In this document: positions 4,785 to 56,046 of the stretch, one piece after another | Numbering within the stretch: the first letter of the stretch is position 1 | Layout: the number at the start of each line of letters is the position of its first letter | Assembly: GCA_038231135.1 (NCBI GenBank) | Contig: JBBRLX010000025.1 | Location: forward strand, 772 to 64,771 | Length of the DNA stretch: 64,000 nucleotides | DNA from: Candidatus Eiseniibacteriota bacterium | Lineage (GTDB): Bacteria; Eisenbacteria; RBG-16-71-46 | Direction: 5' to 3' | Position numbers and translations under genes: made by a program | The notes under the pieces: model-generated | Databases searched by the model: none | What the model was told of the DNA's origin: nothing | What the model saw: only the letters and a program-made list of their open reading frames with translations

Positions 4785-5360
4785 ATGAAGACTCAACGAA
4801 TCTTCACCGCCCTGTTGTTCGGCACGCTGGCCCTCGCGGCGATGGCGCCGATCGCTTCCGCGGACTCGCACAATCGCGGGAACTCGCATGGCCACGGCAA
4901 CAACTCGAGCTGGAACGGCAACAACAACGGCAACAACAATTCGGACTCGCACAACTGGCAGGGCCAGGGCTCGCGCGGCAACGATTCGCGCGGCAAGAGT
5001 TCGCCCGATACCTGGCAGTATCGCCAGGACGATCGCAGCGGCTACGGTGGCAACTACGATCGCGACGACCGGGGTAATCGTGGCAGCTGGACTTCGGGAC
5101 GCACCTACTACTACGAAGACCCGAGCAGCGGCCGGCGTTCGAACTACATCAGCGACTTCAAGGACCGCGACGGCAACGCGGACCCATCGATGGTCATTCT
5201 GCAGATCGACATCCGTACCGGGCAGCAACTGTGTGCATACCGCTACGACAATCGTGCGGGGCACTGGCGGTCGTGGACGGGCGGCGTCTCGTGGAACAAC
5301 GGTGGCTTCGACGTTCGCGGCGCCGGAGTGTACGGCGGATATCCGAGCGACAATCGGTAG
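4785..5360 (+). CDS. Secreted hypothetical protein, N/G/D/S-rich, paralog 1 of a tandem pair
   Basis: GGAGG RBS, Sec signal MKTQRIFTALLFGTLALAAMAPIASA, low-complexity region, then a ~60-aa core shared with 5736..6275. Confidence 0.85.
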   Translation: MKTQRIFTALLFGTLALAAMAPIASADSHNRGNSHGHGNNSSWNGNNNGNNNSDSHNWQGQGSRGNDSRGKSSPDTWQYRQDDRSGYGGNYDRDDRGNRGSWTSGRTYYYEDPSSGRRSNYISDFKDRDGNADPSMVILQIDIRTGQQLCAYRYDNRAGHWRSWTGGVSWNNGGFDVRGAGVYGGYPSDNR

Positions 5361-5735: not shown

Positions 5736-6275
5736 ATGAAGACTCAACGCCTCTTCACCGCCCTGTTGTTCGGCACGCTGGCCCTCGCGGCGATGGCTCC
5801 CATGGCGTCCGCGGACTCGCGGGATCGCAACGGCGACAGTCCCGATTCCCGTGGTACGCAGGGCTCGCGCGGCGATTCGCGCGACAACGGGACGCAGCAG
5901 CAGTCCGGCACCTACCGCCCCGCCGATAACGGCAAGTACGGGCACAACTACAATCGTGATGACCGCAATCACCGCAATAGCTGGTCGTCGCGTCGCACCT
6001 ACTACTATCAGGACCCGAGCAGCGGCCGGCGCTCCGACTACATCAGCGACTTCAAGGATGCTGACGGCAACATGGACAGCCGGATCGTTATTCTCCAGAT
6101 CGACATCCGCACCGGTCGGCAGCTCGGCGCGTTCCGTTATGACAACCGCGCGGGGCACTGGCGGCAGTGGAAGTCCAACCGCAATGGCCAGTGGCGGAAT
6201 GACACCCGTGGGAACGACGGTCGCGGAATTCGCGGCACCGGAGTGTACGGCGGGTATCCGAACCAGAATCACTAG
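5736..6275 (+). CDS. Secreted hypothetical protein, paralog 2 of the tandem pair
   Basis: GGAGG RBS and near-identical signal peptide. Core RTYYYQDPSSGRRSDYISDFKD...ILQIDIRTG...RYDNRAGHWR and C-terminal GVYGGYP. Confidence 0.85.
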   Translation: MKTQRLFTALLFGTLALAAMAPMASADSRDRNGDSPDSRGTQGSRGDSRDNGTQQQSGTYRPADNGKYGHNYNRDDRNHRNSWSSRRTYYYQDPSSGRRSDYISDFKDADGNMDSRIVILQIDIRTGRQLGAFRYDNRAGHWRQWKSNRNGQWRNDTRGNDGRGIRGTGVYGGYPNQNH

Positions 6276-14224: not shown

Positions 14225-16879
14225 ATGAAAACTCGACTCGATCGCCTCGTTTCCAGCCGAAATCACGCCTCCCGCCTGCTGCCGGCCCTGTTGGCCGGGG
14301 TGGTTGCGGCCCTGTCAGTTCCGGCGCTCGGAACGGCCGCGTCCCGCGCCACGGACGTCACGGCGATCCTGCCCGCTCCCGCCAGTTCGGCGGCTGCGGC
14401 GGCCGCCTCCTACGCGGCCCAGCGCCCGCAGCTCGTCGCCATCGACTTCCGGCCGGGCATCGATCTGGGCACGCTGCTGCGCGCCGGGCTCGACGTGGTC
14501 TCCGAGCACGCCGGCAGCGCCGACGTGCTGCTGTCTCCGATCGACGCGGAACGCATCGCGCGGCTCGGCGTCTCACCCCGCGTGCTCGACGCCGATCCCG
14601 GCGCGACCGCGGCGCGGCGCTCGCGACTCGAGCTCGACGCGCGCACGGCGCCGCCGTCGACCCGCGTGCTGAGCGCCACGAGCTCCGACGGCCGCTTCAC
14701 GATCCAGTCGCTGCCGCCGTTCGGCTCGGGCTCGATGGGCGGCTACTGGACCGCGGCCGAGATCAAGATGAAGCTCGACCAGCTGGTGGCGAGCGACACG
14801 CAGAGCCTGGTCGCGGACAAGGTCGACACCGTCGGCTATTCGCGCGAGGGCCGGCCGATCTGGGGGCTGCGCATCACGAAGGCCATCGGCGGTCCCGACA
14901 CGCGGCCCGTGGTGTTCTACAACGCGCTCACCCACGTCCGTGAGCCCGAGGGCATGCAGGCGTTGTTCTACTACGTCGACGACGTGCTGGCGAAATACGG
15001 CTCCGATCCGCTCGCGACGTGGCTGCTCGACCATCGCGTGCTGTACATCGTGCCGCTCGTGAACCCCGACGGCTACGCGGTGAATGAGGCGATTTACAGC
15101 GGCAGCGGCGGATCCACGTTCGGGTTCTGGCGCAAGAACACGCGCGACAACAATCACAACGGGGTGTTCGACGCCGGCACCGACGGCGTGGACCTCAACC
15201 GCAACTTCGGCGTGGACTGGGGCCTCAACAACGTCGGGTCCAGCCCGGACTCGACCACCGACACCTATCGCGGCCCGTCGCCATTCTCCGAGGCCGAAAC
15301 GCAGGTCCAGCGTGACCTGGTGTCCTCGCTCAAGCCGGTCACCGGGTTCTCGTTCCATACCTACAGCGACCTGCTGATCCATCCGTGGGGCTACACCACC
15401 GCCCCCACGCTCGACAACGCCGCGTTCACCGAGTGGAGCGACGAACTCACGCGCGACAATGCGCTGCTGTCGGGTTCTGCGCCGCACATCCTCTACGAGG
15501 TGAACGGCGACTTCAACGACTGGACCTACGGCGACACGCTCGCCAAGCCCCGCGCATTCACGTGGACGCCGGAGATCGGCAGCGACGCCGACGGCGGCTT
15601 CTGGCCGCCGCCGTCGCGCATCACCCCGCTCGCGCAGAAGATGCTGCGGTCGTGCTACGTGGTGGCGGCGATCGCCGGACCCTACGTGATCGAGGACGGG
15701 GTCACGCTGCTGGAAGGCGCGATGAACGCCGGCCGGCTCACGAACGTGGTGGTGAAGGCGCGCAATCTCGGCGCGCGTGGCGCCACCGGCGCCATGACAG
15801 GCACGCTCACGGCGCTGGACACCGGTGCGCACGTGCTGAACGGCACCGTGAGCTATCCCGACGCCGGCCCGCGCACCACGGTGGCCCCGATCGGCGCCGG
15901 GACGTTCCAGGTGGCGCTCGACGACTCGGTCACGCCGGGGCGCCGGATGCGCTTCGAGGTGCTGTTCACGTCATCCGCGGGCTTCGGCCGCGACACCATC
16001 GTGGCGCTCGCGGGCACCCCGACCGTGCTGTTCAGCGACGGCGCCTCGGCGGGCCTCGCCAACTGGACCTCGCTGCCCGGCTCGTCCGCGTGGAGCGTGG
16101 TGCAGAACGACCCCGCGCATCCGAGCCGCTACTTCGCGGAAGACGGCGTCAACGACTACCCCATCAGCGCCGACGAACGGCTGATGCTCAAGCTGCGGCT
16201 CAACCTGTCGACCGGCGTGCACGCCTACGCGCTGTACGACGCCAAGTGGGAATTCGAGCAGGACTACGATGCGGGCGCGGTGGAAGCGACGTTCGACAGC
16301 ACGGTCACCTCGAGCTGGACCCAGCTCAACGCCACCGGCACCACGCCCGGCAGCGGCATCGCCCCTTCGCAGGCCGTTGGGCTGCCGCTCTACTGCGGCA
16401 ACCGCCGCAACTGGAAGGCCGAGATCGCGGACCTGTCGCCGTGGTCGGGCCCGGGGCGCACCCACGTGAACTTCCGGTTCCGCGGCCGTTCCGACGGCGG
16501 CGGCAACTTCGACGGCATGGCGTTCGATTCGCTGCGCATCGTGATCTTCAACCCCGCCGCACAGCCAACCCCGGTCGCGGTCGGCGGCGTACCGCTGCCG
16601 CACTACCTCGAGCTCGCGGCGCCCAGCCCGAACCCGACGCGTGGCCTCACCCGCTTCGACTTCGCGCTGCCCCAGGCCGGCCTCGCGCGTCTCGAGATCC
16701 TCGATCTCCAGGGCCGCCGGGTGCGCACGCTCATGAACACCACGCTCGCCGCCGGCCACTACGTCCATGGCTGGAACCTGCTCGACGACCGCGGCGTCCT
16801 GGCGCCTCCCGGCGTGTACCTCGCAAGGCTCGCCACGCCTGGCGGTCAGGTGGTACGGAGAGTCGTCGTCATCGGGTAG
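14225..16879 (+). CDS. Secreted M14 zinc carboxypeptidase with an immune-inhibitor-like domain and FlgD-Ig C-terminal domain
   Basis: HVRE, VNPDG, WRKN, GVDLNRNF, FHTYS and WTPEIG. C-terminus APSPNP...LEILDLQGRRVRTL...WNLLDDRG...PGVYLARL. Confidence 0.9.
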   Translation: MKTRLDRLVSSRNHASRLLPALLAGVVAALSVPALGTAASRATDVTAILPAPASSAAAAAASYAAQRPQLVAIDFRPGIDLGTLLRAGLDVVSEHAGSADVLLSPIDAERIARLGVSPRVLDADPGATAARRSRLELDARTAPPSTRVLSATSSDGRFTIQSLPPFGSGSMGGYWTAAEIKMKLDQLVASDTQSLVADKVDTVGYSREGRPIWGLRITKAIGGPDTRPVVFYNALTHVREPEGMQALFYYVDDVLAKYGSDPLATWLLDHRVLYIVPLVNPDGYAVNEAIYSGSGGSTFGFWRKNTRDNNHNGVFDAGTDGVDLNRNFGVDWGLNNVGSSPDSTTDTYRGPSPFSEAETQVQRDLVSSLKPVTGFSFHTYSDLLIHPWGYTTAPTLDNAAFTEWSDELTRDNALLSGSAPHILYEVNGDFNDWTYGDTLAKPRAFTWTPEIGSDADGGFWPPPSRITPLAQKMLRSCYVVAAIAGPYVIEDGVTLLEGAMNAGRLTNVVVKARNLGARGATGAMTGTLTALDTGAHVLNGTVSYPDAGPRTTVAPIGAGTFQVALDDSVTPGRRMRFEVLFTSSAGFGRDTIVALAGTPTVLFSDGASAGLANWTSLPGSSAWSVVQNDPAHPSRYFAEDGVNDYPISADERLMLKLRLNLSTGVHAYALYDAKWEFEQDYDAGAVEATFDSTVTSSWTQLNATGTTPGSGIAPSQAVGLPLYCGNRRNWKAEIADLSPWSGPGRTHVNFRFRGRSDGGGNFDGMAFDSLRIVIFNPAAQPTPVAVGGVPLPHYLELAAPSPNPTRGLTRFDFALPQAGLARLEILDLQGRRVRTLMNTTLAAGHYVHGWNLLDDRGVLAPPGVYLARLATPGGQVVRRVVVIG

Positions 16880-18916: not shown

Positions 18917-20311
18917 CTACAGCACGATCACGCGTCTCATGAATTTGTTTCCATCCACCCTGGCCCGTAGCAGATACACGCCGGGCTTCACCCGGATTCC
19001 CGATGCATCCCGCAAATCCCATGTCACAGGGAGCGTTCCGACCCCCTCGTTGGCCCAAATGCGCAGCCGGCGCCCCGCCAGGTCATAGGCTTCGAGCGTG
19101 GAACGCCCGGGCAGCCGCTGCGTGAGCCGCAGCGTCACGCGCTCGGAAGCGGGGTTGGGTTCGGGCGCCGCGAATGCGATGGACGCCTCGGGGGCGGGCG
19201 CGTCGAGCGCATCGCCCGCATAGGCGTCGAACACGATCGAGTTCGGCGGCAGCCCGGTCGGGAGCGGGCCCGCGAGCGGCGCGTCGGTGGCGGTGGAAAA
19301 CACCCGCAGGCCCGGCGTCGAGAACGAATTGTCGCACAGGTACAACTCGCCACGGTCGTCGAGCGCGCAATCGGCGAGGCCGCCGTTCGGGCCGAACACG
19401 GTCGCGAGCTTCGCTCCCGTCGCGGGATTCCAGGTGACGAGCGAGGCGTTGAAGCTCGCATCGGTGACGATCGCGTAGCCATGCGTCGCGGTGTGCCATT
19501 CGACGTCCGCGATGTCGCCGCCCAGCGCAGCCTCGGTGATCGCGACCCCCATATCCTTGAACGTGGCGGGGTCGATCTTCACGACGCCGCCGTCGAGCAC
19601 GCCATAGGCCCCCACGCAGCCCAGGTAGAACACGCGGCCCACCGGATCCCAGGCGAACGCGGTCGAGGGATTCGTGCGCGACAGCAGAATTGCCTGCTTG
19701 CCGGGCAGCGCGGGATCCACGTCCACCACCGTGTCCGCGACCGCGTCGATCACCGCGACGAGACTCGAGTCGGTGGGCTGGAAACCGTGGTTCTCGTCGA
19801 TGCGCTGCAGCGACACCAGCAGCCAGCGACCGTAGCGCGCGATGTGATCGGGCTCGGGCAGGCCGTCCGCGTCGGCGAACATCGACAGGTCGATGCTCCC
19901 GAGCTGGGCACCCGTCGATGGATTCACGATCAGCATCCGGGCGGAGTGATACAGCGCCACGTACGCCCGCGTCGGCGACACCACGGCGATGTCGTACGGG
20001 TTCGAGCCGTTGCCGGTGGAGAACTGCTTCACCGTGGCGAAACCGGCGGCGGGATCGATCACCTGGATGTTGTCCTGGCCGAGCCGGTTCACGACGTAGA
20101 GCAGGCCGCCGAACCAGCGCACGCGCGCATCCTTGTAGACCGACGCCACGTCCTGCGCCACGGCGTGCGTGGCCAGCGTCACCGCGCTGAGCCCGCCGGT
20201 GGAGAAGTCGGTGGTCACGACGTAGCCGTGCGACTGCGCGGCGCGCGCGGGCGGTGACTGGGCCGCAATCCAGACGACGGCGAGGGCGGGGATCAGGGCG
20301 CGAACGTTCAT
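18917..20311 (-). CDS. Secreted YncE/YVTN-like beta-propeller with FlgD-Ig-like CTD; BtuG-like cobalamin-binding candidate
   Basis: GAGGAGG RBS and signal MNVRALIPALAVVWIAAQSPPARA. Propeller repeats LYVVNRLGQDNIQVIDP, NPYDIAVVSPTRAYV and TGLPPNSIVF, then an APEPNP...YDLAGRR...WDLRDASG...PGVY CTD. Lies directly downstream of btuB. Confidence 0.75.
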   Translation of the reverse strand: MNVRALIPALAVVWIAAQSPPARAAQSHGYVVTTDFSTGGLSAVTLATHAVAQDVASVYKDARVRWFGGLLYVVNRLGQDNIQVIDPAAGFATVKQFSTGNGSNPYDIAVVSPTRAYVALYHSARMLIVNPSTGAQLGSIDLSMFADADGLPEPDHIARYGRWLLVSLQRIDENHGFQPTDSSLVAVIDAVADTVVDVDPALPGKQAILLSRTNPSTAFAWDPVGRVFYLGCVGAYGVLDGGVVKIDPATFKDMGVAITEAALGGDIADVEWHTATHGYAIVTDASFNASLVTWNPATGAKLATVFGPNGGLADCALDDRGELYLCDNSFSTPGLRVFSTATDAPLAGPLPTGLPPNSIVFDAYAGDALDAPAPEASIAFAAPEPNPASERVTLRLTQRLPGRSTLEAYDLAGRRLRIWANEGVGTLPVTWDLRDASGIRVKPGVYLLRARVDGNKFMRRVIVL

Positions 20312-31552: not shown

Positions 31553-32482
31553 ATGAACCCCCGCACCACGCTTCGCCCGGCCCGCGCCCTCGCGGGACTG
31601 CTCGCTCTCTCCGCCGGACTCGCGTTGAGCGCCTCCGCCCACGCCGACGACTACGTGCTGCGCACCCGCAACACCAGCAGCCACCCGTCGGCCGACGGCA
31701 GCCTCGTCGAAGTGCAGGTTCAGGTCGATGGTGCGACGGCACCGCTCTACTTCCGCCCCGGCACCTACGACCGCCACTACTTCCAGGCGTTCTCCGGCAC
31801 CAACTACTCGCTGGTCGTCCACAACACCAGCGGCGAGCGCGTCGGCGTGCTGCTCGCGGTCGACGGCCTCAACGTCGTGAACGGCGAGAAGTCGCGGTTG
31901 AACCGCACCGAACCGATGTACGTGCTCGACCCCTACGAGACCGCGACGATTCGCGGCTGGCGCACGTCGCTCGACGACATCCGCCGGTTCGTGTTCGTCG
32001 ACGAGACCCGGTCGTACGCCGAGCGTACGGGCCAGGCGAATGGCGACATGGGCTGGATCCGCGTGCTGGCGTTCCGCGAGTCGCAGCCATGGCTCGGCCT
32101 GTTCCGGCGCCAGATTGCAGCGCCGGCCCCCGCGCGTGACGAACGCGGCAATTATGCGCCCGAAAGCGCGGCGCCCGCGCCGTCGGCGGACAACGGCGCG
32201 GACAACCTCGCGAAGAGTGCCCAGCCGCAGGTGGGCTACCTCAACGGTGGCCGTCAGGATGCGCCCACCGCCCAGTCGAATCCCGGCACGGGCTGGGGCG
32301 ATCGCCGGCACGATCCGGTGAACCAGGTCGAGTTCCAGGCGGCCCGCATGGCATCCGACCAGCTGATCCTGCGCTACGAATACGCGTCGGGGCTGCAGGC
32401 GCTGGGCATCGACATCCGCCGGTCCAGGCTGTGGGACCGGGAGCACGGCGAGCTGGGGTTCGCCCGCCCTCCCCGCCGGTAG
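31553..32482 (+). CDS. Secreted conserved hypothetical protein
   Basis: GAGGAGG RBS and signal peptide ending AHA. Motifs AVDGLNVVNGE, YVLDPYETATIRGWRTS, SYAERTG, GTGWG and GFARPP. Confidence 0.8.
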   Translation: MNPRTTLRPARALAGLLALSAGLALSASAHADDYVLRTRNTSSHPSADGSLVEVQVQVDGATAPLYFRPGTYDRHYFQAFSGTNYSLVVHNTSGERVGVLLAVDGLNVVNGEKSRLNRTEPMYVLDPYETATIRGWRTSLDDIRRFVFVDETRSYAERTGQANGDMGWIRVLAFRESQPWLGLFRRQIAAPAPARDERGNYAPESAAPAPSADNGADNLAKSAQPQVGYLNGGRQDAPTAQSNPGTGWGDRRHDPVNQVEFQAARMASDQLILRYEYASGLQALGIDIRRSRLWDREHGELGFARPPRR

Positions 32483-32508
32483 GCACGCTCCGAACAGGCG
32501 GTAGGCGC

Positions 32509-32550
32509 CCACGGCGCCGGCTCGATGCCGGCGCCGTTCCCGTTTTGTTT
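32509..32550 (+). terminator. Intrinsic terminator
   Basis: ACGGCGCCGGC-loop-GCCGGCGCCGT followed by TCCCGTTTTGTTT. Confidence 0.6.
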
Positions 32551-32758
32551 CAGGGGCAGGCGCGCCGACCGGGCGCACATTGTTTGCCCCGCCGAATCTC
32601 CACCCCTCGGGCGCTCGCTCCCGCCGCCTGTGTCGAGTAAGGTGGCGGCGCGAAACCCGTTCCCGACTCAACACCGTGGAATCGCCGGCTGCCGCCGCGC
32701 ATCCTATCCTCTTCAATTCCCATCCAGAACGATACCGGCTTCGGGAGGAAGCAATTTC

Positions 32759-33886
32759 ATGCGCAGGCCCATGCTGTGGATGTTGGCGGGCGTCCTGCTT
32801 GTCGTGGCCGCCCTTGGCTTCGTCAAGTTCACGCAGATCCAGGCCGCGATCGCCGGCGGCAAGCTCTACCACCCGCCCCCCGAGACGGTGACCAGCGTCG
32901 TGGCCGGTATCCACGAGTGGCCGACCTCGCTCGACGCCGTGGGCAGTGTGGCCCCGGTGAAGGGTGTCACGCTGTCCGCCGACCTCCCGGGCGTGATCGA
33001 CAAGGTCGAGTTCACGTCCGGCGCGCATGTGGAACAGGGCAAGGTGCTGGTGACCCTCGATACCCGGCAGGAACGGGCGCAACTCGCCGCGGCCGAAGCG
33101 CAGCAGGCCCTCGCGAAGAACAATCTCGACCGCGCGACCAAGCTGTTCGCGACCAAGGCCATTTCCCAGTCGGATTTCGACCAGGCTTCGGCGGTTTCCA
33201 AGCAGGCCGACGCACAGGTCCAGCAGAGCACGGCGGCAATCGGCCGCAAGACGATCCGCGCGCCGTTCTCGGGGCTGACCGGAATCCGCCTCGTCAATCC
33301 CGGGCAGTACGTTCAGAGCGGCGACCCGATCGTCCCGCTGCAGGCGCCGGATCCGATGTACGTGAATTTCTCGGTGCCGCAGCAGGCCGCCGCGGCGATC
33401 GGGCCGGGGGCCATCGTGGTCGCGAGCGCGGATAGCGGAGCGAAGGGCCGATTCACCGGCCGCGTCACGACCGTCAATCCAGTGGTCGCGGACGCCACGC
33501 GCAACGTCGACGTGCAGGCGACGTTCCACAATCCGCACGGGCTGATGCGGGCCGGCATGTATGTCACCGTCCAGGTGCTGGTCGGCAGGAGCGTTCCGAC
33601 GATCTCGGTGCCGGCGTCGGCGATCAACTACGCGCCGTATGGCAACTCCGTGTTCATCATCGAGCAGGTCAAGGGCCCCGACGGCAAGAGCTACCAGGGC
33701 GTGCGGCAGCAGTTCGTGAAGCTCGGCCGCGCCCAGGGCGATCAGGTCGCCGTGATCGACGGCCTCCACGCCGGACAGGAGGTCGTGAGCTCCGGCGTGT
33801 TCAAGCTGCGCACCGGGGCGGCCGTGGTCGTCGACAACAAGGTCCAGCCGTCGAACAGCCTGACCCCGAAGCCGGCGGACAGCTGA
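32759..33886 (+). CDS. RND efflux periplasmic adaptor (membrane fusion protein)
   Basis: N-terminal TM, lipoyl halves (LPGVIDKVEFTSG; IRAPFSG), GMYVTV and VPASAI. TGATG overlap with the permease. Confidence 0.93.
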   Translation: MRRPMLWMLAGVLLVVAALGFVKFTQIQAAIAGGKLYHPPPETVTSVVAGIHEWPTSLDAVGSVAPVKGVTLSADLPGVIDKVEFTSGAHVEQGKVLVTLDTRQERAQLAAAEAQQALAKNNLDRATKLFATKAISQSDFDQASAVSKQADAQVQQSTAAIGRKTIRAPFSGLTGIRLVNPGQYVQSGDPIVPLQAPDPMYVNFSVPQQAAAAIGPGAIVVASADSGAKGRFTGRVTTVNPVVADATRNVDVQATFHNPHGLMRAGMYVTVQVLVGRSVPTISVPASAINYAPYGNSVFIIEQVKGPDGKSYQGVRQQFVKLGRAQGDQVAVIDGLHAGQEVVSSGVFKLRTGAAVVVDNKVQPSNSLTPKPADS

Positions 33887-36800
33887 TGAAGTTCACCGAT
33901 CTGTTCATCCGGCGACCCGTCCTGGCCATCGTCGTCAACCTGCTGATCCTGATCGCGGGTCTGCAGTCGATCCGGTCGCTGTCCGTCCGCCAGTTCCCCC
34001 GCACCGACGTGGCCGTGGTGACGGTGAGCACGGTGTACGTCGGCGCCAATGCGGATCTCGTGCGCGGCTTCATCACGTCGCCGCTCGAGCGCGTGATCGC
34101 GAGCGCCGACGGCATCGACTACGTCGAGTCGTCGAGCGCCCAGAGCGTCAGCACGATCACCGTGCACCTGAAGCTCAACTACGACACCAACGCCGCGCTC
34201 ACCCAGATTCAGTCGAAGGTGGCGCAGGTGCGCAACGACCTCCCGCCGGAGGCGCAGGCCCCGATCATCCAGGTCCAGACGGCCGACGCGCAGTTCGCCG
34301 CCATGTACCTCGGGTTCTCGTCCAAGGATCTCGACCAGAGCCAGATCAGCGATTACCTGACGCGCGTCGTGCAGCCGAAGCTGAGTGCGGTCAGCGGCGT
34401 GCAGCGCGCCGACATCCTCGGCGGCCGCACGTTCGCCATGCGCATCTGGCTCAAGCCCGACCGGATGGCGGCGCTCGGCCTCGCGCCGTCCCAGGTGTGG
34501 AACGCGCTGGCGGCGAACAACTCGCTATCGGCACTCGGCGCCACCAAGGGTTCGATGACGTCGGTGAACCTGGTCGCGAACACCGATCTCAAGACGCCCG
34601 AGGAGTTCCGCCAGCTCGTCGTCAAGCAGAACGGCAGCGACGTCGTGAGGCTCGGCGAAATCGCCGACGTCGAGCTGGGCGCGGAGGACTACAACTCCCA
34701 GGTGCAGTTCAATGGCCAGACCGCAACGTTCATGGGCATCTGGGTGACGTCGAATTCGCTCGAAGTCATCAAGCGTGTTCGCGAGGCAATGAAGGAGATC
34801 CAGGCCCAGCTGCCGGTGGGCATGACCGCCGGTATTCCGTACGACTCGACGATCTACATCCAGGACTCCATCCACGAGGTGCTCAAGACCCTCACCGAGA
34901 CGCTGTTGATCGTCATGCTCGTGATCTTCCTGTTCCTCGGCTCGGTGCGCGGGCTGATCATCCCGGTCGTCGCAATTCCGATCTCGTTGATCGGCGCCGT
35001 GTTCCTGATGCAGACCGCCGGGTTCACGATCAACCTGCTGACGCTGCTCGCGATCGTGCTGTCGGTGGGGCTCGTGGTGGACGACGCGATCGTCATGGTC
35101 GAGAACATCGAGCGCCACGTGCACCTGGGCGAGTCCCCGCTCAACGCGTCGCTGCTGGCGGCGCGGGAGCTGGCCGGACCGATCATCGCCATGACGATCA
35201 CGCTGGCGGCCGTTTACACGCCGCTCGCGATTCAGGGCGGCCTGACGGGGGCGCTGTTCCGGGAGTTCGCGTTTACGCTCGCAGGCGCGGTCTTCGTCTC
35301 GGGTATTGTGGCGCTCACGTTGTCGCCGATGATGGGTTCGCGCCTGCTGCGGGCGGGCGACGACATGCGCGGGTTCGCGGGGCATATCAACCGGCAGTTC
35401 GACCGGCTGCGCGGGCTGTACATGCGCATGCTGCAAGGAACGCTCGGGAATCGCGCGGTGGTCCTGACGCTGTGGGTCATCGTGGTGCTGCTGATCATTC
35501 CGTTCTACATGTTCACGCAGCGCGAGCTGGCGCCTGCGGAGGACCAGAGCGTGGTGTTCGGCATCGTACAGGCGGCGCCGAACGCCACCCTGGACCAGAC
35601 CACGCTGTTCGCGTCCCAGATCTACAAGGTGTTCCATTCGTTCCCGGAGACCAAGAACACGTTCCAGATCACGACGCCGGGCGGCGGGTTCGCCGGCATG
35701 GTCACGACGCCGTGGAAGGAGCGCAAGCGCAGTACCGCGCAATTGCAGGTGCAGGTCGGGGGCGCGTTCTCGAAGATCCCGGGCATCCGGGCGATCGCGC
35801 TCACGCCGCCGTCGCTGCCCGGCGGCGGCAGCTTCCCGGTCGACCTCGTGATCGCCTCGACCGCCGAGCCCGAGCAGTTGATCGCGATCGCGAACCAGAT
35901 GGTGGGCAAGGCCTACGCCAGCGGCATGTTCATGTACGTCGATACCGATCTCAAGTACGACCAGCCGCAGGCCGAGGTCGTGCTGGATCGCGACAAGGTG
36001 CGCTCGCTCGGCGTCGATCTGAGCACCGTGGGACGCGACCTGTCGACGATGCTGGGCGGCAATTTCGTCAATCGCTTCAGCATCCAGGGCCGCAGCTACA
36101 AGGTGATCCCGCAAATCCAGCGCAGCGAACGCCTGACGTCCGAGCAGCTGCAATCCCTGTACGTGACGGGGCCGCACGGCACGCTGGTGCCGCTGTCGAC
36201 GTTCGCCTCGATCAAGACCAGTACGCAGCCGCGCGAGCTCAAGCGCTTCCAGCAGCTGAACGCGGTCCGCATCCAGGCGGTCATCCCCCCGGGCGTGTCG
36301 CTGGAGAAGGCGCTGGGGTTCCTCGAGACCGAGGCGAAGCGGTCGCTGCCGAGCGGCTACACGATCGATTACGCCGGCGAGTCGCGCCAGCTGCGCACCG
36401 AGGGCGGCAAGTTCCTCGGCATCTTCCTCCTGTCGGGGATCCTGATCTTCCTCGTGCTCGCGGCGCAGTTCGAGAGCTTCCGGGATCCATTCGTGATCCT
36501 GGCGGGCTCGGCGCCGCTCGCGGTCTCGGGCGCGCTGATGTTCATGTTCCTGGGCTTCACGTCGCTCAACATCTACAGCCAGGTCGGCCTGATCACGCTG
36601 GTGGGCCTGGTGGCGAAGAACGGCATCCTGATCGTGCAGTTCGCGAACCATCTGCAGTCGACCGGTCTCGACAAGGCGAAGGCCGTGGTCGAAGCCGCCG
36701 GCACGCGATTGCGGCCAATCCTGATGACGACCGCCGCCACGGTGTTCGGCCACCTGCCGCTGATCTTCGCGCGCGGCCCGGGAGCCGGAGCGCGGAACAG

Positions 36801-36966
36801 CATCGGAATCTCGCTGGTCAGCGGCATGGTGATCGGAACGATGTTCACGCTGTTCGTGGTCCCGGCCGTCTACACGCTGGTCGCAAAGGTCCACACGCCC
36901 GAAGAGGAGATGGATCCCGCCGAGGTCGAGGTCATTCTTCCCGGGATGACGACGACGCAAGCCTGA
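33886..36966 (+). CDS. RND efflux permease (AcrB/MexW-like, HAE1)
   Basis: FIRRPVLA, GLVVDDAIVMVENIER, GLVAKNGIL and RLRPILMTT; 1026 aa. Confidence 0.95.
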   Translation: MKFTDLFIRRPVLAIVVNLLILIAGLQSIRSLSVRQFPRTDVAVVTVSTVYVGANADLVRGFITSPLERVIASADGIDYVESSSAQSVSTITVHLKLNYDTNAALTQIQSKVAQVRNDLPPEAQAPIIQVQTADAQFAAMYLGFSSKDLDQSQISDYLTRVVQPKLSAVSGVQRADILGGRTFAMRIWLKPDRMAALGLAPSQVWNALAANNSLSALGATKGSMTSVNLVANTDLKTPEEFRQLVVKQNGSDVVRLGEIADVELGAEDYNSQVQFNGQTATFMGIWVTSNSLEVIKRVREAMKEIQAQLPVGMTAGIPYDSTIYIQDSIHEVLKTLTETLLIVMLVIFLFLGSVRGLIIPVVAIPISLIGAVFLMQTAGFTINLLTLLAIVLSVGLVVDDAIVMVENIERHVHLGESPLNASLLAARELAGPIIAMTITLAAVYTPLAIQGGLTGALFREFAFTLAGAVFVSGIVALTLSPMMGSRLLRAGDDMRGFAGHINRQFDRLRGLYMRMLQGTLGNRAVVLTLWVIVVLLIIPFYMFTQRELAPAEDQSVVFGIVQAAPNATLDQTTLFASQIYKVFHSFPETKNTFQITTPGGGFAGMVTTPWKERKRSTAQLQVQVGGAFSKIPGIRAIALTPPSLPGGGSFPVDLVIASTAEPEQLIAIANQMVGKAYASGMFMYVDTDLKYDQPQAEVVLDRDKVRSLGVDLSTVGRDLSTMLGGNFVNRFSIQGRSYKVIPQIQRSERLTSEQLQSLYVTGPHGTLVPLSTFASIKTSTQPRELKRFQQLNAVRIQAVIPPGVSLEKALGFLETEAKRSLPSGYTIDYAGESRQLRTEGGKFLGIFLLSGILIFLVLAAQFESFRDPFVILAGSAPLAVSGALMFMFLGFTSLNIYSQVGLITLVGLVAKNGILIVQFANHLQSTGLDKAKAVVEAAGTRLRPILMTTAATVFGHLPLIFARGPGAGARNSIGISLVSGMVIGTMFTLFVVPAVYTLVAKVHTPEEEMDPAEVEVILPGMTTTQA

Positions 36967-37004: not shown

Positions 37005-37994
37005 ATGAAGCCGCTCCACCACGCCATCGCCCGGTTGGCCCCGACGTTCGCCGTACTCGCCCTGCTCGTCCTGATGCCCGCCGCCGTCCGGGCCAGCACA
37101 CCCGTGTTCCTGCGCGCCTGGGGCGACTCCACGAGCGGCCCGGGAGGCTTTGCGCGCATCGCGGGAATCGCCGTGGCTCCCAACGGCGACGTCTATGTCG
37201 TCGACTCCAACCGGCGACGCGTCCAGGCGTTCGCTCCCGACGGCAGCTATCAGTTCGATTGGATCGCCTCGGACCTGTCGCAGCCAGTGGGAATCGCGAT
37301 CGACACGCACAGCCGGGTGTTCCTCACGGACTACAAGGGCCACGTCGTCGAGCGCGAAGACGCGTCCGGCTCGCCGGAACAGCAATTCGGGCAGTTCGGC
37401 GTGGACACCGCGCAGTTCCATGCTCCCAGCGATGTCGAGGTCGAACCCGACGGCAACGTGATCGTCGTCGACCAGCTCAACAGCCGGCTGCAGCGGTTCA
37501 CGCCCGACGGCGTGTTCCTCGCGCAGATCGGCGACACGGTCGGCGCACCGGGAGCGCTCGATCATCCGTTCGGCGTGGCGGTCGACCCCGACGGCAATCT
37601 CTACGTGTCGGACCAGAACCACCACCGCATCGTGAAGTTCGCGCACGACGGCACCTACCTGACGTCGTTCGGCTCACAGGGCCCGGGGCCCGGGCAGTTC
37701 CCAGGTCCGGCCGGGCCCACCGGCATCGCGATCGACCCCGATCGCACGGTGTACGTCGTGGACACGCAGTCGAACCGCGTGGAGATGTTCACCGATTCCG
37801 GCAGCTACATCGGCATGTTCGGCACGTTCGGCAAGGCACCCGGGCAGTTCGAGTTCCCGGTGAACATCGCGATCTCGCCGAACTTCGAGATCTATGTCGG
37901 CGATCGCGACAACTTTCGCGTGCAGAAGTTCAGCGCCCGCACGACCGCCGTCACCCACGCCACCTGGGGCGAGATCAAGCGCCGCTACCGCTGA
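37005..37994 (+). CDS. Secreted NHL-repeat beta-propeller protein with a C-terminal TWGxIKxxYR motif
   Basis: Signal peptide, six NHL repeats (e.g. PFGVAVDPDGNLYVSDQNHHRIVKF) and end ...TTAVTHATWGEIKRRYR*. Confidence 0.88.
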   Translation: MKPLHHAIARLAPTFAVLALLVLMPAAVRASTPVFLRAWGDSTSGPGGFARIAGIAVAPNGDVYVVDSNRRRVQAFAPDGSYQFDWIASDLSQPVGIAIDTHSRVFLTDYKGHVVEREDASGSPEQQFGQFGVDTAQFHAPSDVEVEPDGNVIVVDQLNSRLQRFTPDGVFLAQIGDTVGAPGALDHPFGVAVDPDGNLYVSDQNHHRIVKFAHDGTYLTSFGSQGPGPGQFPGPAGPTGIAIDPDRTVYVVDTQSNRVEMFTDSGSYIGMFGTFGKAPGQFEFPVNIAISPNFEIYVGDRDNFRVQKFSARTTAVTHATWGEIKRRYR

Positions 37995-38016: not shown

Positions 38017-39036
38017 CTATCTCGAACGCGCTTTACTGCGCTTCGCGCGTTTGGGTCGTGACGCTGCCTTCGTCGCCGCACCCCGCGTGGCGCGCTCCAT
38101 GTCGGCCCACTGCGCCGGCGACAGCTTGAGGTCGATCGCGGCGAGGTTCTCCTCGAGCTGGGCGGTCGACGTCGCGCCGATGATCGCGCTCGAGATCTCC
38201 GGTCGCCGCAGCACCCACGCCAGCGCGACCTGCGACGGCGTCGCGGAGGTGTGCTTCGCCACCCACGCCGCGAACCGCTCGGCGGCGGCCACGTTCGCGG
38301 GCGTCAGCGCCTGCTCGGCCTCGAGGAAGTGCTTGAACGAGCCCGAGCCGCGGGAGCCCGCGGGGATCGTCATGCCGGCGTACTTGTTCGTGAGCACGCC
38401 CTGCAGCAGCGGCGAATAGCAGATGATGCCGATGCCGTGCTTCGCGACGAACTTCATGTGCTCGGTCTCGATGCGCGGCTCGAGCACGTTGTAGCGCGGC
38501 TGGCTCGAGATGAACGGATCCCAGCCCCGCGCGCGCTGGTGGGCCACGGCGCGCGCGAGCAGCCTGGGGTCGCGGTCGAAGTTCGAGAACCCCACGTAGC
38601 GCGTCTTCCCCGCCCGCACCAGGTCCTCGAACGCGCGCAGCGTCTCCTCGATCGGCGTGTTCGGATCGGGCGCGTGGAGCTGGTAGAGATCGACGTAGTC
38701 GACGCGCAGCCGCACGAGGCTCTTGTCCATCGCGTCGAAGATGTGCTTGCGCGACAGCCCGCCGCCGAGCGGCCCGTCCCACACGCGGCCCATGCACTTG
38801 GTCGCGACCACGATCTGCTCGCGCGGCAGCGTCTCGAGTGCCTTGCCGAGCACGGTCTCGGCGCCGCCGCGCACGTACACGTCGGCGGTGTCGAACAGGT
38901 TCACGCCGAGTTCGAACGCGCGCCGGACGATGCCGATCGCGTCGGCCTCGGTCACGGAGCCGCCATAGGTCGTCCACGAGCCGAGCGACAGCTCGGACAC
39001 TCGCAGGCCGGTGTGGCCGAGCGATCGGTAGTTCAT
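38017..39036 (-). CDS. Aldo/keto reductase (Kv-beta/Tas-like)
   Basis: LSLGSW, FDTADVY, ATK, DYVDLYQLH and YSPLLQGVLT, with a basic C-terminal tail. Confidence 0.92.
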   Translation of the reverse strand: MNYRSLGHTGLRVSELSLGSWTTYGGSVTEADAIGIVRRAFELGVNLFDTADVYVRGGAETVLGKALETLPREQIVVATKCMGRVWDGPLGGGLSRKHIFDAMDKSLVRLRVDYVDLYQLHAPDPNTPIEETLRAFEDLVRAGKTRYVGFSNFDRDPRLLARAVAHQRARGWDPFISSQPRYNVLEPRIETEHMKFVAKHGIGIICYSPLLQGVLTNKYAGMTIPAGSRGSGSFKHFLEAEQALTPANVAAAERFAAWVAKHTSATPSQVALAWVLRRPEISSAIIGATSTAQLEENLAAIDLKLSPAQWADMERATRGAATKAASRPKRAKRSKARSR

Positions 39037-50720: not shown

Positions 50721-51146
50721 ATGAAGGGTTGCCCTCGAGGATTCACGCTCATTGAGTTGATGATCGTGGTGGTGATCATCGGCATTCTCGCCGCAATCGC
50801 CATTCCGAACTACGTCTCCATGCAGGCCCGGGCCAAGGAAGGCGCCACCAAGTCGAACATGCACACGTTCCAGATGATGACCGAGGACTACGGCGTGCAG
50901 AACAACGGCACCTATCCCGACCTCGCTTCGGCCGTCGGGGCGGCACTGCCGCCCAACTTCCACAACACGTTCGACAACTCGACCGGGGACGGTAACGCCT
51001 GGGAGGATCGTCCGTCGTTTGCGGGGTTGCCCTCGACCAAGGCGGGCATCACGAGCTACGCGGATTCGGCTGCCGGCACCACCTACAACATCAAGGGCCA
51101 GGGCAAGAATGCGCCGTTCTCGCTGGTCCTGAACTGCGGGCAATAA
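50721..51146 (+). CDS. Type IV pilin-like protein 1
   Basis: Class III signal RG|FTLIELMIVVVIIGILAAIAIPN. Confidence 0.9.
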   Translation: MKGCPRGFTLIELMIVVVIIGILAAIAIPNYVSMQARAKEGATKSNMHTFQMMTEDYGVQNNGTYPDLASAVGAALPPNFHNTFDNSTGDGNAWEDRPSFAGLPSTKAGITSYADSAAGTTYNIKGQGKNAPFSLVLNCGQ

Positions 51147-51350: not shown

Positions 51351-51782
51351 ATGCGCCGCCATCAGCAGGGCTTTACGCTCATCGAGTTGATGATCGTGGT
51401 CGTCATCATCGGAATCCTCGCGGCCATCGCGATCCCCAATTTCGTCGCGATGCAGACACGCGCCAAGGAAGGCAGCACCAAGTCGAACATGCATACGTTC
51501 CAGCTCTCCGCGGAGGACTACGGCGTGCAGAACGATGGCGCCTATGCCGGCACCGCGACCCAGGTCGCGGCTCTGCTTCCCAGCAGCGGCTCCGTGTTCA
51601 AGAATCCGTTTACCCAGGGCACCGGCAGCGCCGTGGCCTGGGAGGACCGCACGGTGGCGGCGGCCAGCCCGTCGGCGACTCCCGGACTCACGAGCTACGC
51701 CGACTCGCTGGGGACGTCCTACAACGTGAAGGGCGAGGGCGTCACGGCTCCGCTCACGCTGGTGCTCACCGCCGGCCAGTAG
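51351..51782 (+). CDS. Type IV pilin-like protein 2 (paralog of pilin 1)
   Basis: QG|FTLIELMIVVVIIGILAAIAIPN, sharing RAKEGxTKSNMHTFQ, WEDR, TSYADS and the terminal GQ with pilin 1. Confidence 0.92.
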   Translation: MRRHQQGFTLIELMIVVVIIGILAAIAIPNFVAMQTRAKEGSTKSNMHTFQLSAEDYGVQNDGAYAGTATQVAALLPSSGSVFKNPFTQGTGSAVAWEDRTVAAASPSATPGLTSYADSLGTSYNVKGEGVTAPLTLVLTAGQ

Positions 51783-55312: not shown

Positions 55313-56046
55313 TCACCGGTAGAGACTCTTGAGCTGACCCCAGCTGCGCGTCCGGCCCCCCGCACTCGCCGCACAGCCGGTCGTCGAGCTCTGCCACAGG
55401 ACGTGGTTGGAGCCCGCCGCCGCCGTGATCTCGGGATCGTTCCCCGCCTCGGGCACCTGGAACAGCTGAATCTCGTTCAGAACGATGCAGGCCGGGACAC
55501 TGCATCCGGCGCACGATCCCACCCCCGTGCTCTTCGCGCGATTGATGCTGGCGCGGAATGCATAGTATTCCGTGCCGGGATCGACGGGACCGAGGTTGTC
55601 GATGGGGACGGCGACCGAAACCCGCAGCCGGGCACGATCGACGTCACCGAAGCCGACGTCGTATGCAAACCCGCCGGCCGCCAGCCCGGCGTAGAAGTCC
55701 GTGCAACTGGAGGATCCGCCGGTGAAGTCGAAGCTCGTCGACAGTTCCCGACACCCCGACACCGGCCCGCACCGTGCGCCCACCAGTCGACGAACACCGG
55801 GGTACCGCTGAAGATCTCCAACTCGGCCGTCAGGCCAAGGAACTGCCGGATGCCGCCCGGGGGTATGAACGAGGCGTACAGCGAGAACGGCGCACCCGTG
55901 TTCGCATCGCAGGCGAATGTCTTGACGGTGGAGCCGCTCGACCCGCAGTCATCCCAGGTCAGATTGACGCCCGTGGCGCTGGCCCATCCGGCGCACCCGA
56001 GCATGGCGAGCCCGCACGCAATCCCGGCGGGTAGCAATCGACGCAT
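55313..56046 (-). pseudogene. Secreted Cys-rich protein with C-terminal SWGQLKSLYR motif; single frameshift near 55745 (pseudogene or sequencing error)
   Basis: GGGAGG RBS, signal peptide and GVNLTWDDCG...FACDANTG...DWW in one frame. LSTSFDF...CAGCSVPACIVLNEIQL...WQ...RSWGQLKSLYR* follows in another frame. One added base would join them. Confidence 0.75.

Follow-up and report, generated by a model that had tools for sequence, protein, structure and literature searches.

The stretch of DNA analyzed here (the window) comprises 64,000 nt of a Candidatus Eiseniibacteriota genome and encodes a secreted NHL β-propeller protein that closes with a short tail of the form (S/T)WGx(I/L)KxxYR. This tail is a real, widespread and uncatalogued C-terminal tag, found at the end of thousands of proteins from two uncultured phyla. 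It is carried by exported proteins and is modular, strictly terminal and interchangeable with known sorting domains. On balance we favour the view that the last 17-20 residues would form a self-contained, transferable address tag, by which a reader protein in the cell envelope would sort or dock its carriers.

In the genome (G000; 4.09 Mb in 97 contigs, 69% G+C) the window corresponds to positions 772-64771 of contig C25. Its NHL gene (37005-37994, plus strand) was read from the open reading frames (ORFs) as a protein of 329 aa ending in TTAVTHATWGEIKRRYR-stop, and so bears the tail that the first-pass annotation had assigned to it. In the AlphaFold2 (AF2) model of this protein (predicted local distance difference test score, pLDDT, 93.6) the propeller finishes at residue 310, residues 311-320 have a mean pLDDT of 66, and a helix at residues 5-22 lies inside the putative signal peptide. 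The tail core was matched both by a back-translated DNA pattern (C25:38736-38765) and by a tail profile hidden Markov model (HMM), termed A2.

The other example given in that annotation, an unrelated Cys-rich protein at 55313-56046, retains its tail (GGRTRSWGQLKSLYR-stop, terminating at 55313 on the minus strand; DNA pattern match of the core at C25:56084-56113), but it is not a single intact gene. With its 734 nt the interval is not divisible by three and therefore cannot be one open frame. A signal-peptide part (55477-56046) and a part with the body and tail (55313-55783) overlap in different frames of the minus strand, and comparison with intact paralogues places a 1-nt shift near 55,750-55,760. 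The frameshifted sequence is identical in contigs of two sequencing runs, X1 and X2, possibly the source samples, so the frameshift belongs to the assembled population; the site falls outside the contigs of two related runs, X3 and X4. Judging from its sequence, this copy is likely a pseudogene among intact paralogues. The statement that both proteins have Sec signals accordingly holds for the NHL protein, while for the Cys-rich gene it holds only across the frameshift.

A six-frame scan of the whole genome yielded 33,507 segments of at least 60 aa. The strict terminal form, [ST]WGx[LIVM]KxxYR-stop, closes 17 of these frames and a looser terminal form 22, and a still looser scan for [ST]WGx[IVL][KR]xx[YW] ends gave 26 frames, one of them spurious, leaving 25. 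When the strict core was allowed anywhere, all 21 occurrences lay 1-23 residues from a stop. The back-translated DNA pattern matched 17 times, compared to 0 times with a reversed control, and HMM A2 gave 27 matches at E≤0.1. The recurrence of the tail far exceeds chance, and the genome-wide scan that the first-pass annotation had asked for thus found a motif that is both abundant and strictly C-terminal. It is barely credible that there is no functional module here and that the tail is either a coincidental likeness or an end common to the members of a single diverged domain family. Such an explanation has in its favour only that the motif is short, whereas reversed-pattern controls give about 0 against thousands of matches, and the motif is strictly terminal on unrelated carrier folds (propeller and β-sandwich).

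The strict DNA pattern is present in 192 of 206 genomes of the bacterium's own phylum (Eisenbacteria), typically 10-45 times per genome, with a single match of the reversed control over all 206; this tally, and no other, includes a genome flagged as unpublished (G073). A scan of 185,579 species genomes returned at least 132 loci, mostly titled Eisenbacteria. Among the matches listed, the other titles were Latescibacterota, Krumholzibacteriia and 'Fibrobacteraceae', and 2 of the at least 132 loci look like chance. The genomes labelled with these three names belong to a second GTDB phylum, in which the pattern occurs in 112 of 121 sampled genomes (0-67 per genome, control 0). Genomes free of the strict pattern mostly hold variants of the tail, with 44, 24 and 17 HMM matches in G054, G056 and G232, respectively. 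In a Zixibacteria-labelled phylum the tail profile matched none of 40 genomes other than G208 at E≤0.001.

The consensus of 174 non-redundant tails begins with a Cys at position -18 to -20 and continues P-[VT]-P-[VT]-[ER]-x-x-[TS]-W-G-x-[IVL]-K-[AS]-L-Y-R, in which the collection procedure partly fixed W, G, K, Y and R; sets with less bias give the same picture. Among 120 Cys-rich homologues 114 keep the strict tail, and Arg stands in place of the Lys in 2 of 25 tails of this genome and in 1 of 118 full-length Cys-rich members. Twenty variant tails, fetched with an HMM that itself favours K, all keep W-G-x-[IVL]-K and end in ...ALY, ...LYN, ...LYDE, ...LLK, ...LFR and the like. Since W-G-x-[IVL]-K is constant while the ends vary, the universal core is [ST]WGx[IVL]Kx[LM][YFL] followed by 0-4 residues. 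The terminal Arg of the motif as given in the first reading of the window needs correction, since to judge by these sequences the terminal Y-R is a lineage form and not universal.

For two unrelated folds the AF2 models predict that the tail consists of a flexible linker, rich in Pro, Thr and Val in the consensus, and a helix of two turns that stands apart from the fold. The helix spans residues 321-328 in the NHL carrier (pLDDT 81 for the block, after a linker at 66) and residues 236-243 in a Cys-rich carrier (pLDDT about 60, after a linker below 50), and as modelled the tag does not appear to be part of a folded domain. The low-confidence linker in these models and the position of all 21 cores near a stop agree with the proposal of a motif placed exactly at the C-terminus after a short flexible linker. 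With nine residues after the [ST] and no hydrophobic stretch, the tail has no transmembrane (TM) helix and matches no sortase-type signal, again as proposed. The helix proposed in the first-pass annotation was predicted on both folds. The hydrophobic moment is not above that of shuffled sequences, 28.5% of which reach the observed mean.

This last result bears on another explanation, namely that the tail needs no reader and is an amphipathic, aromatic and basic helix that holds small proteins at the envelope by binding to membrane or lipopolysaccharide, in the manner of the C-terminal amphipathic membrane anchors of low-molecular-weight penicillin-binding proteins (PBPs). One face of the predicted helix does carry W, I/V, L and Y, with K and R next to these residues, and an anchor of this kind predicts the lack of dedicated machinery found in the neighbourhood searches described below. 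Only 8-9 helical residues are available for it, however, and the moment is no better than that of shuffles. W, G, K and Y are invariant over two phyla, whereas lipid-binding helices conserve physico-chemical character instead, and the rarity of the exchange of Lys for Arg is likewise more than such a helix calls for. We therefore regard direct anchoring as unlikely.

Signal peptides were found, when the best start was chosen for each gene, in 21 of the 25 tail carriers, and two of the remaining four are broken genes whose upstream piece encodes one. When the starts were taken from the gene caller untuned, the proportion was 14 of 23 tail genes compared to 812 of 2898 others (odds ratio 4.0, p=0.0015), an enrichment for which the first-pass annotation had proposed a test. 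Among 24 carriers scanned against Pfam, eight have NHL repeats, one has a lamin-tail domain (LTD) and 14 have no match above threshold; one carrier has a sub-threshold match to a 3-keto-disaccharide hydrolase. BLAST clustering separated an NHL group, a Cys-rich group (six members, plus one on contig C12), a three-member group and singletons. The carriers of this genome fall into at least eight unrelated families with unrelated folds (propeller, β-sandwich), and the median length of the tagged proteins is 246 aa. All 179 homologues of the Cys-rich family are annotated as 'hypothetical' and have no Pfam domain. The AF2 model of this family (pLDDT 85.6) is a β-sandwich, and its carriers give weak cohesin-like fold matches (2vo8, E=2e-4, TM-score 0.63 on the target). 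Five tandem or near-tandem secreted paralogues of the family are located at C2:125553-132359 (locus L002).

No Pfam or NCBIfam model was found to cover the tail in the 24 carriers scanned, and a scan of 133 isolated tails at E≤10 gave one chance-level match, to a model of a ribosomally synthesized and post-translationally modified peptide (RiPP), tryglysin, at E=0.13. The tail thus lies outside characterized HMMs, as had been surmised, and no description of it was found in the literature searched. A Trp-Lys crosslinked RiPP was considered and rejected on the strength of this single match among the 133 tails, and such a peptide is ill-suited to folded proteins exported by Sec.

A further comparison is with the C-terminal domains (CTDs) of the T9SS (type IX secretion system). 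The closest database homologues of the NHL protein of the window, P0121 and P0122 (59% and 58% identical, respectively), have T9SS-type CTD-like ends, with Pfam FlgD_ig recorded for P0122 only and not for P0121. Homology to P0122 covers residues 23-312 (to ...RVQKFSAR), beyond which 17 residues follow in the window protein, compared to a FlgD_ig CTD of 94 aa in P0122. Ten of the 120 NHL homologues listed have the tail, three of them with extra residues behind it; T9SS-type CTDs, TM anchors (P0165, P0183, P0207) or a PEP-CTERM-like signal (P0169) close others. The same exchange is seen within the genome, where a tag protein on contig C16 is 47% identical to the protein at C23:22003-22911, the CTD of which begins exactly at the start of the tail. 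The Cys-rich module, too, occurs inside a T9SS-CTD protein of 1133 aa (C20:33231-36632, 66% identity). Because the tail occupies the exact slot of the T9SS domain of its relatives, it looks like an address label that has so far escaped cataloguing.

About 160 proteins of this genome (approximately 5% of the gene calls) have a T9SS-type FlgD-Ig-like CTD, with a median length of 806 aa and a maximum of 3833 aa. None of these CTD proteins carries the tail as well, in agreement with the original suggestion that the tail runs in parallel with the FlgD-Ig CTD. The genome encodes SprA (C5:35556-41717), which is also found in 28 of 29 genomes of a mixed panel, and a conserved canonical PorV at C30:31600-32571, between two giant CTD proteins; PorV-like barrels total seven. 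A cassette in which a giant CTD protein is grouped with two barrels, one TonB-receptor-like and one PorV-like, recurs at C35:6011-12617, C2:92386-96160, C8:89418-96510 and C3:98557-105768.

What fills the slot in homologues also bears on the idea that the tail marks proteins for turnover or quality control by a periplasmic PDZ-type protease or chaperone. PDZ proteases read short C-terminal peptides, and the tail is exposed and flexible in the AF2 models. The homologues, however, fill this slot with anchoring or sorting signals (CTDs, PEP-CTERM, TM anchors) and not with degrons, and it is hard to see a degron kept under purifying selection in dozens of families of two phyla, so that we consider this explanation very improbable.

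C-terminal sorting signals in diderm bacteria decide between periplasmic retention, display and release. On the preferred reading, that of an address tag, the tagged protein would first leave the cytoplasm by Sec; an envelope protein would then bind the tail helix as its reader and would sort these mostly small binding modules to the cell surface or outer membrane, or hold them there. The tag would thereby provide a second path next to the one used by the cell's T9SS-CTD cargo of about 160 proteins. In the foremost concrete form of this reading, which we advance tentatively, the tail could be a third, helix-type T9SS signal with a shuttle of its own. It seems rather doubtful that one helix of some 20 residues, read by its own outer-membrane shuttle, would suffice to carry a folded protein over the outer membrane or to a distinct surface destination; if a third class of T9SS signal does exist, it would be the shortest known outer-membrane export signal. 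There is precedent for a T9SS-linked version in two publications, which describe short CTDs and class-specific shuttles: CTDs of 40-55 aa in Prevotella intermedia and a 22-residue essential part of Hbp35 (PMC11969387), and separate shuttles for different CTD classes, type B having dedicated PorP/SprF proteins (PMC12618676). In a bolder variant, the near-invariant Lys of the tail may supply the amine to which T9SS cargo is joined by sortase-type ligation, the cargo thus ending up on tagged proteins.

A number of results weigh against the address-tag reading. No shared machinery lies among the six genes to the left and right of the tag genes here, and 20 flanks (up to 20 kb) around tag-gene clusters of 14 other genomes have no neighbour family in common apart from the tag itself. 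Tag genes are dispersed among housekeeping genes in this genome, and the only families shared in these neighbourhoods are the tag carriers themselves and giant T9SS-CTD proteins. When the 174 tails were aligned with 161 of the genome's own CTDs, hhalign returned a probability of 0.1% over two columns. In the Zixibacteria-labelled phylum SprA was found in five of five genomes tested and the tail in none of 40 other than G208, so the T9SS alone does not imply the tag. The helix was predicted with moderate confidence (pLDDT about 60 and 81), and the hydrophobic moment does not separate a helix from a strand (0.52 vs. 0.54). The variability of the terminal Arg weakens models in which a free Y-R carboxy end is read. 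Signal peptides were called by a heuristic, and 3 of the 25 tail copies look degraded or broken.

The co-occurring translocon or peptidase that the first-pass annotation had hoped for was not found in the neighbourhoods, by phylogenetic profiling or in checks of SprA and CHASE2. A cassette of a CHASE2 propeller and a PorV barrel cannot be the reader here, because CHASE2 has no match in this genome. When compared with TIGR04189, SprA gives one long alignment in tag-poor and in Zixibacteria-labelled genomes and a split one in tag-rich genomes. As a correlate of the tag this subtype was rejected, since the long form is also seen in four of the five members of family f7 that bear the tag, and the form of SprA therefore tracks lineage and not tag content. 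Profiling on supposedly pattern-free genomes was likewise abandoned: the tail HMM finds variant tails in most of them, so they are not true negatives, and only G021, G215 and G225 look truly tag-poor. The genome also has two secretins (C10:16993-17484 and C31:32492-32962), so that the T9SS is not the sole possible outer-membrane route.

The lack of a dedicated reader gene would be explained if the tail were a covalent tether, its near-invariant Lys being linked to peptidoglycan by an L,D-transpeptidase or serving as acceptor for a sortase-type enzyme (PorU), since a ubiquitous enzyme could then do the work. Braun's lipoprotein (Lpp) is linked to peptidoglycan by L,D-transpeptidases and has Y-R beside the linking Lys at its C-terminus. 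The strong preference for K over R, the location of the Lys on what AF2 predicts to be a flexible C-terminal arm, and the presence in the genome of a PorU/PorV-type locus together with SprA are all in line with this possibility. The Lys is internal (position -5), however, and not terminal as in Lpp, two tails of this genome have Arg in its place, and the constancy of K in the variant tails came by way of an HMM that favours K. We judge a covalent tether to be improbable, more so than direct anchoring by the helix.

To our knowledge, each new class of C-terminal sorting signal has so far led to a new enzyme or translocon. In two uncultured phyla that are common in the environment, roughly 10-60 proteins of each genome bear the tag, which competes there with the T9SS domain for the same slot and whose short length would make it practical in fusions. 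The identity of the reader would show whether the T9SS accepts signals that are not domains or whether a further envelope-anchoring route exists, and would improve the annotation of thousands of 'hypothetical' secreted proteins.

The features of the window that bear on the tail are collected in Table 1.

Table 1 Features related to the C-terminal tail; positions are those of the window
Feature	Position	Strand	Evidence
Secreted protein of 862 aa with T9SS-type FlgD-Ig-like CTD (residues 756-862)	14291..16879	+	Local CTD HMM, E=1.9e-32
Secreted protein of 464 aa with T9SS-type CTD (residues 362-464)	18917..20311	-	Local CTD HMM, E=1.1e-23
Gene of secreted six-bladed NHL β-propeller with tail, 329 aa	37005..37994	+	ORF; Pfam NHL, E=5e-32; AF2
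Putative Sec-type signal peptide of the NHL protein, about residues 1-30 (...AAVRA/STP)	37005..37094	+	Sequence reading and heuristic
Linker TTAVTHAT between propeller and tail core, residues 313-320	37941..37964	+	Homology to P0122 stops at residue 312; pLDDT
Tail core WGEIKRRYR and stop codon (tag proper)	37965..37994	+	DNA pattern; AF2 helix; HMM A2
Cys-rich, weakly cohesin-like family member, frameshifted	55313..56046	-	ORFs; paralogues 62-66% identical
Tail core WGQLKSLYR and stop codon of the frameshifted copy	55313..55342	-	DNA pattern; six-frame scan
Degraded tail copies: Cys-rich copy of the window; split NHL gene C4:203105-204051; fragment C4:~174.8-175.0 kb

The NHL tag gene begins 38 nt past an operon for a resistance-nodulation-division (RND) efflux system (31553-36966) and is convergent with an aldo/keto reductase gene (38017-39036). 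The pair of NHL and reductase genes is also found at C4:202018-204051, the NHL copy there being in three ORF pieces. Elsewhere in the window, two adjacent paralogous genes on the plus strand (4785-5360 and 5736-6275) encode small secreted proteins of 191 and 179 aa with near-identical signal peptides and a common ...VYGGYP... end. Two prepilin-type genes lie side by side at 50757-51146 and 51351-51782, also on the plus strand, and their products have an N-terminal hydrophobic segment like that of type IV pilins.

When compared with known C-terminal signals, the tail is unlike the outer-membrane β-signal read by the β-barrel assembly machinery (BAM), which ends a barrel with an aromatic last residue, in that its carriers are soluble propellers or β-sandwiches and the last residue here is Arg. 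It resembles the anchors of PBP5/6 and the Y-R-K end of Lpp in being a short, basic and aromatic C-terminal element of a protein that faces the periplasm, with a Tyr-Arg pair and a nearby Lys, but it is much shorter and far more conserved in sequence than the PBP5/6 anchors, and differs from Lpp in having its Lys at -5 and Arg as the terminal residue. The tripartite signals (PEP-CTERM/exosortase, LPXTG/sortase, GlyGly-CTERM/rhombosortase and MYXO-CTERM) are likewise short C-terminal signatures on non-homologous secreted proteins. The tail shares with them an upstream Pro motif, P-[VT]-P-[VT]-[ER], and basic residues at the very end, and such signals are borne by four homologues of its carriers (P0169, P0165, P0183 and P0207). 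In contrast to their TM helix of about 20 residues and basic cluster, the tail has nine amphipathic residues after the [ST] and no TM helix, and none of the 24 carriers matches a curated NCBIfam sorting-signal HMM.

In the dockerin-cohesin system a small C-terminal module found on many proteins docks onto a repeated receptor module. The tail, too, is one small C-terminal module on many proteins, so that by analogy docking may be possible, and a cohesin-like module is present in the T9SS-anchored protein of 1133 aa. A dockerin (PF00404) is a duplicated Ca-binding segment of about 60-70 aa, however, for which the tail is too short, and there is no Pfam match.

From the type A CTD of the T9SS (TIGR04183, PF18962, PF13860), a β-sandwich of about 70-100 aa, or at least 40 aa with three strands, the tail differs in its length of 17-20 aa and its predicted 8-residue helix. 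It matches no profile of motifs B, D or E, and no CTD model of Pfam or NCBIfam matches any of the 24 carriers. Like the type A domain, it is located at the extreme C-terminus of Sec-type proteins after a coil linker, in genomes that have SprA and PorV, and its slot is the one that such a domain fills in a homologue of 58% identity and in a paralogue of the same genome. The tail and the type B CTD models were compared through the NCBIfam scan, which gave no match to a CTD model. Type B cargo genes often adjoin the gene of their shuttle, in contrast to the tag genes, which have no recurrent neighbour. What the type B CTDs and their PorP/SprF shuttles offer for the tail is the idea of a second class of signal, with an outer-membrane shuttle of its own, by which paralogous cargo reaches another destination (PMC12618676).

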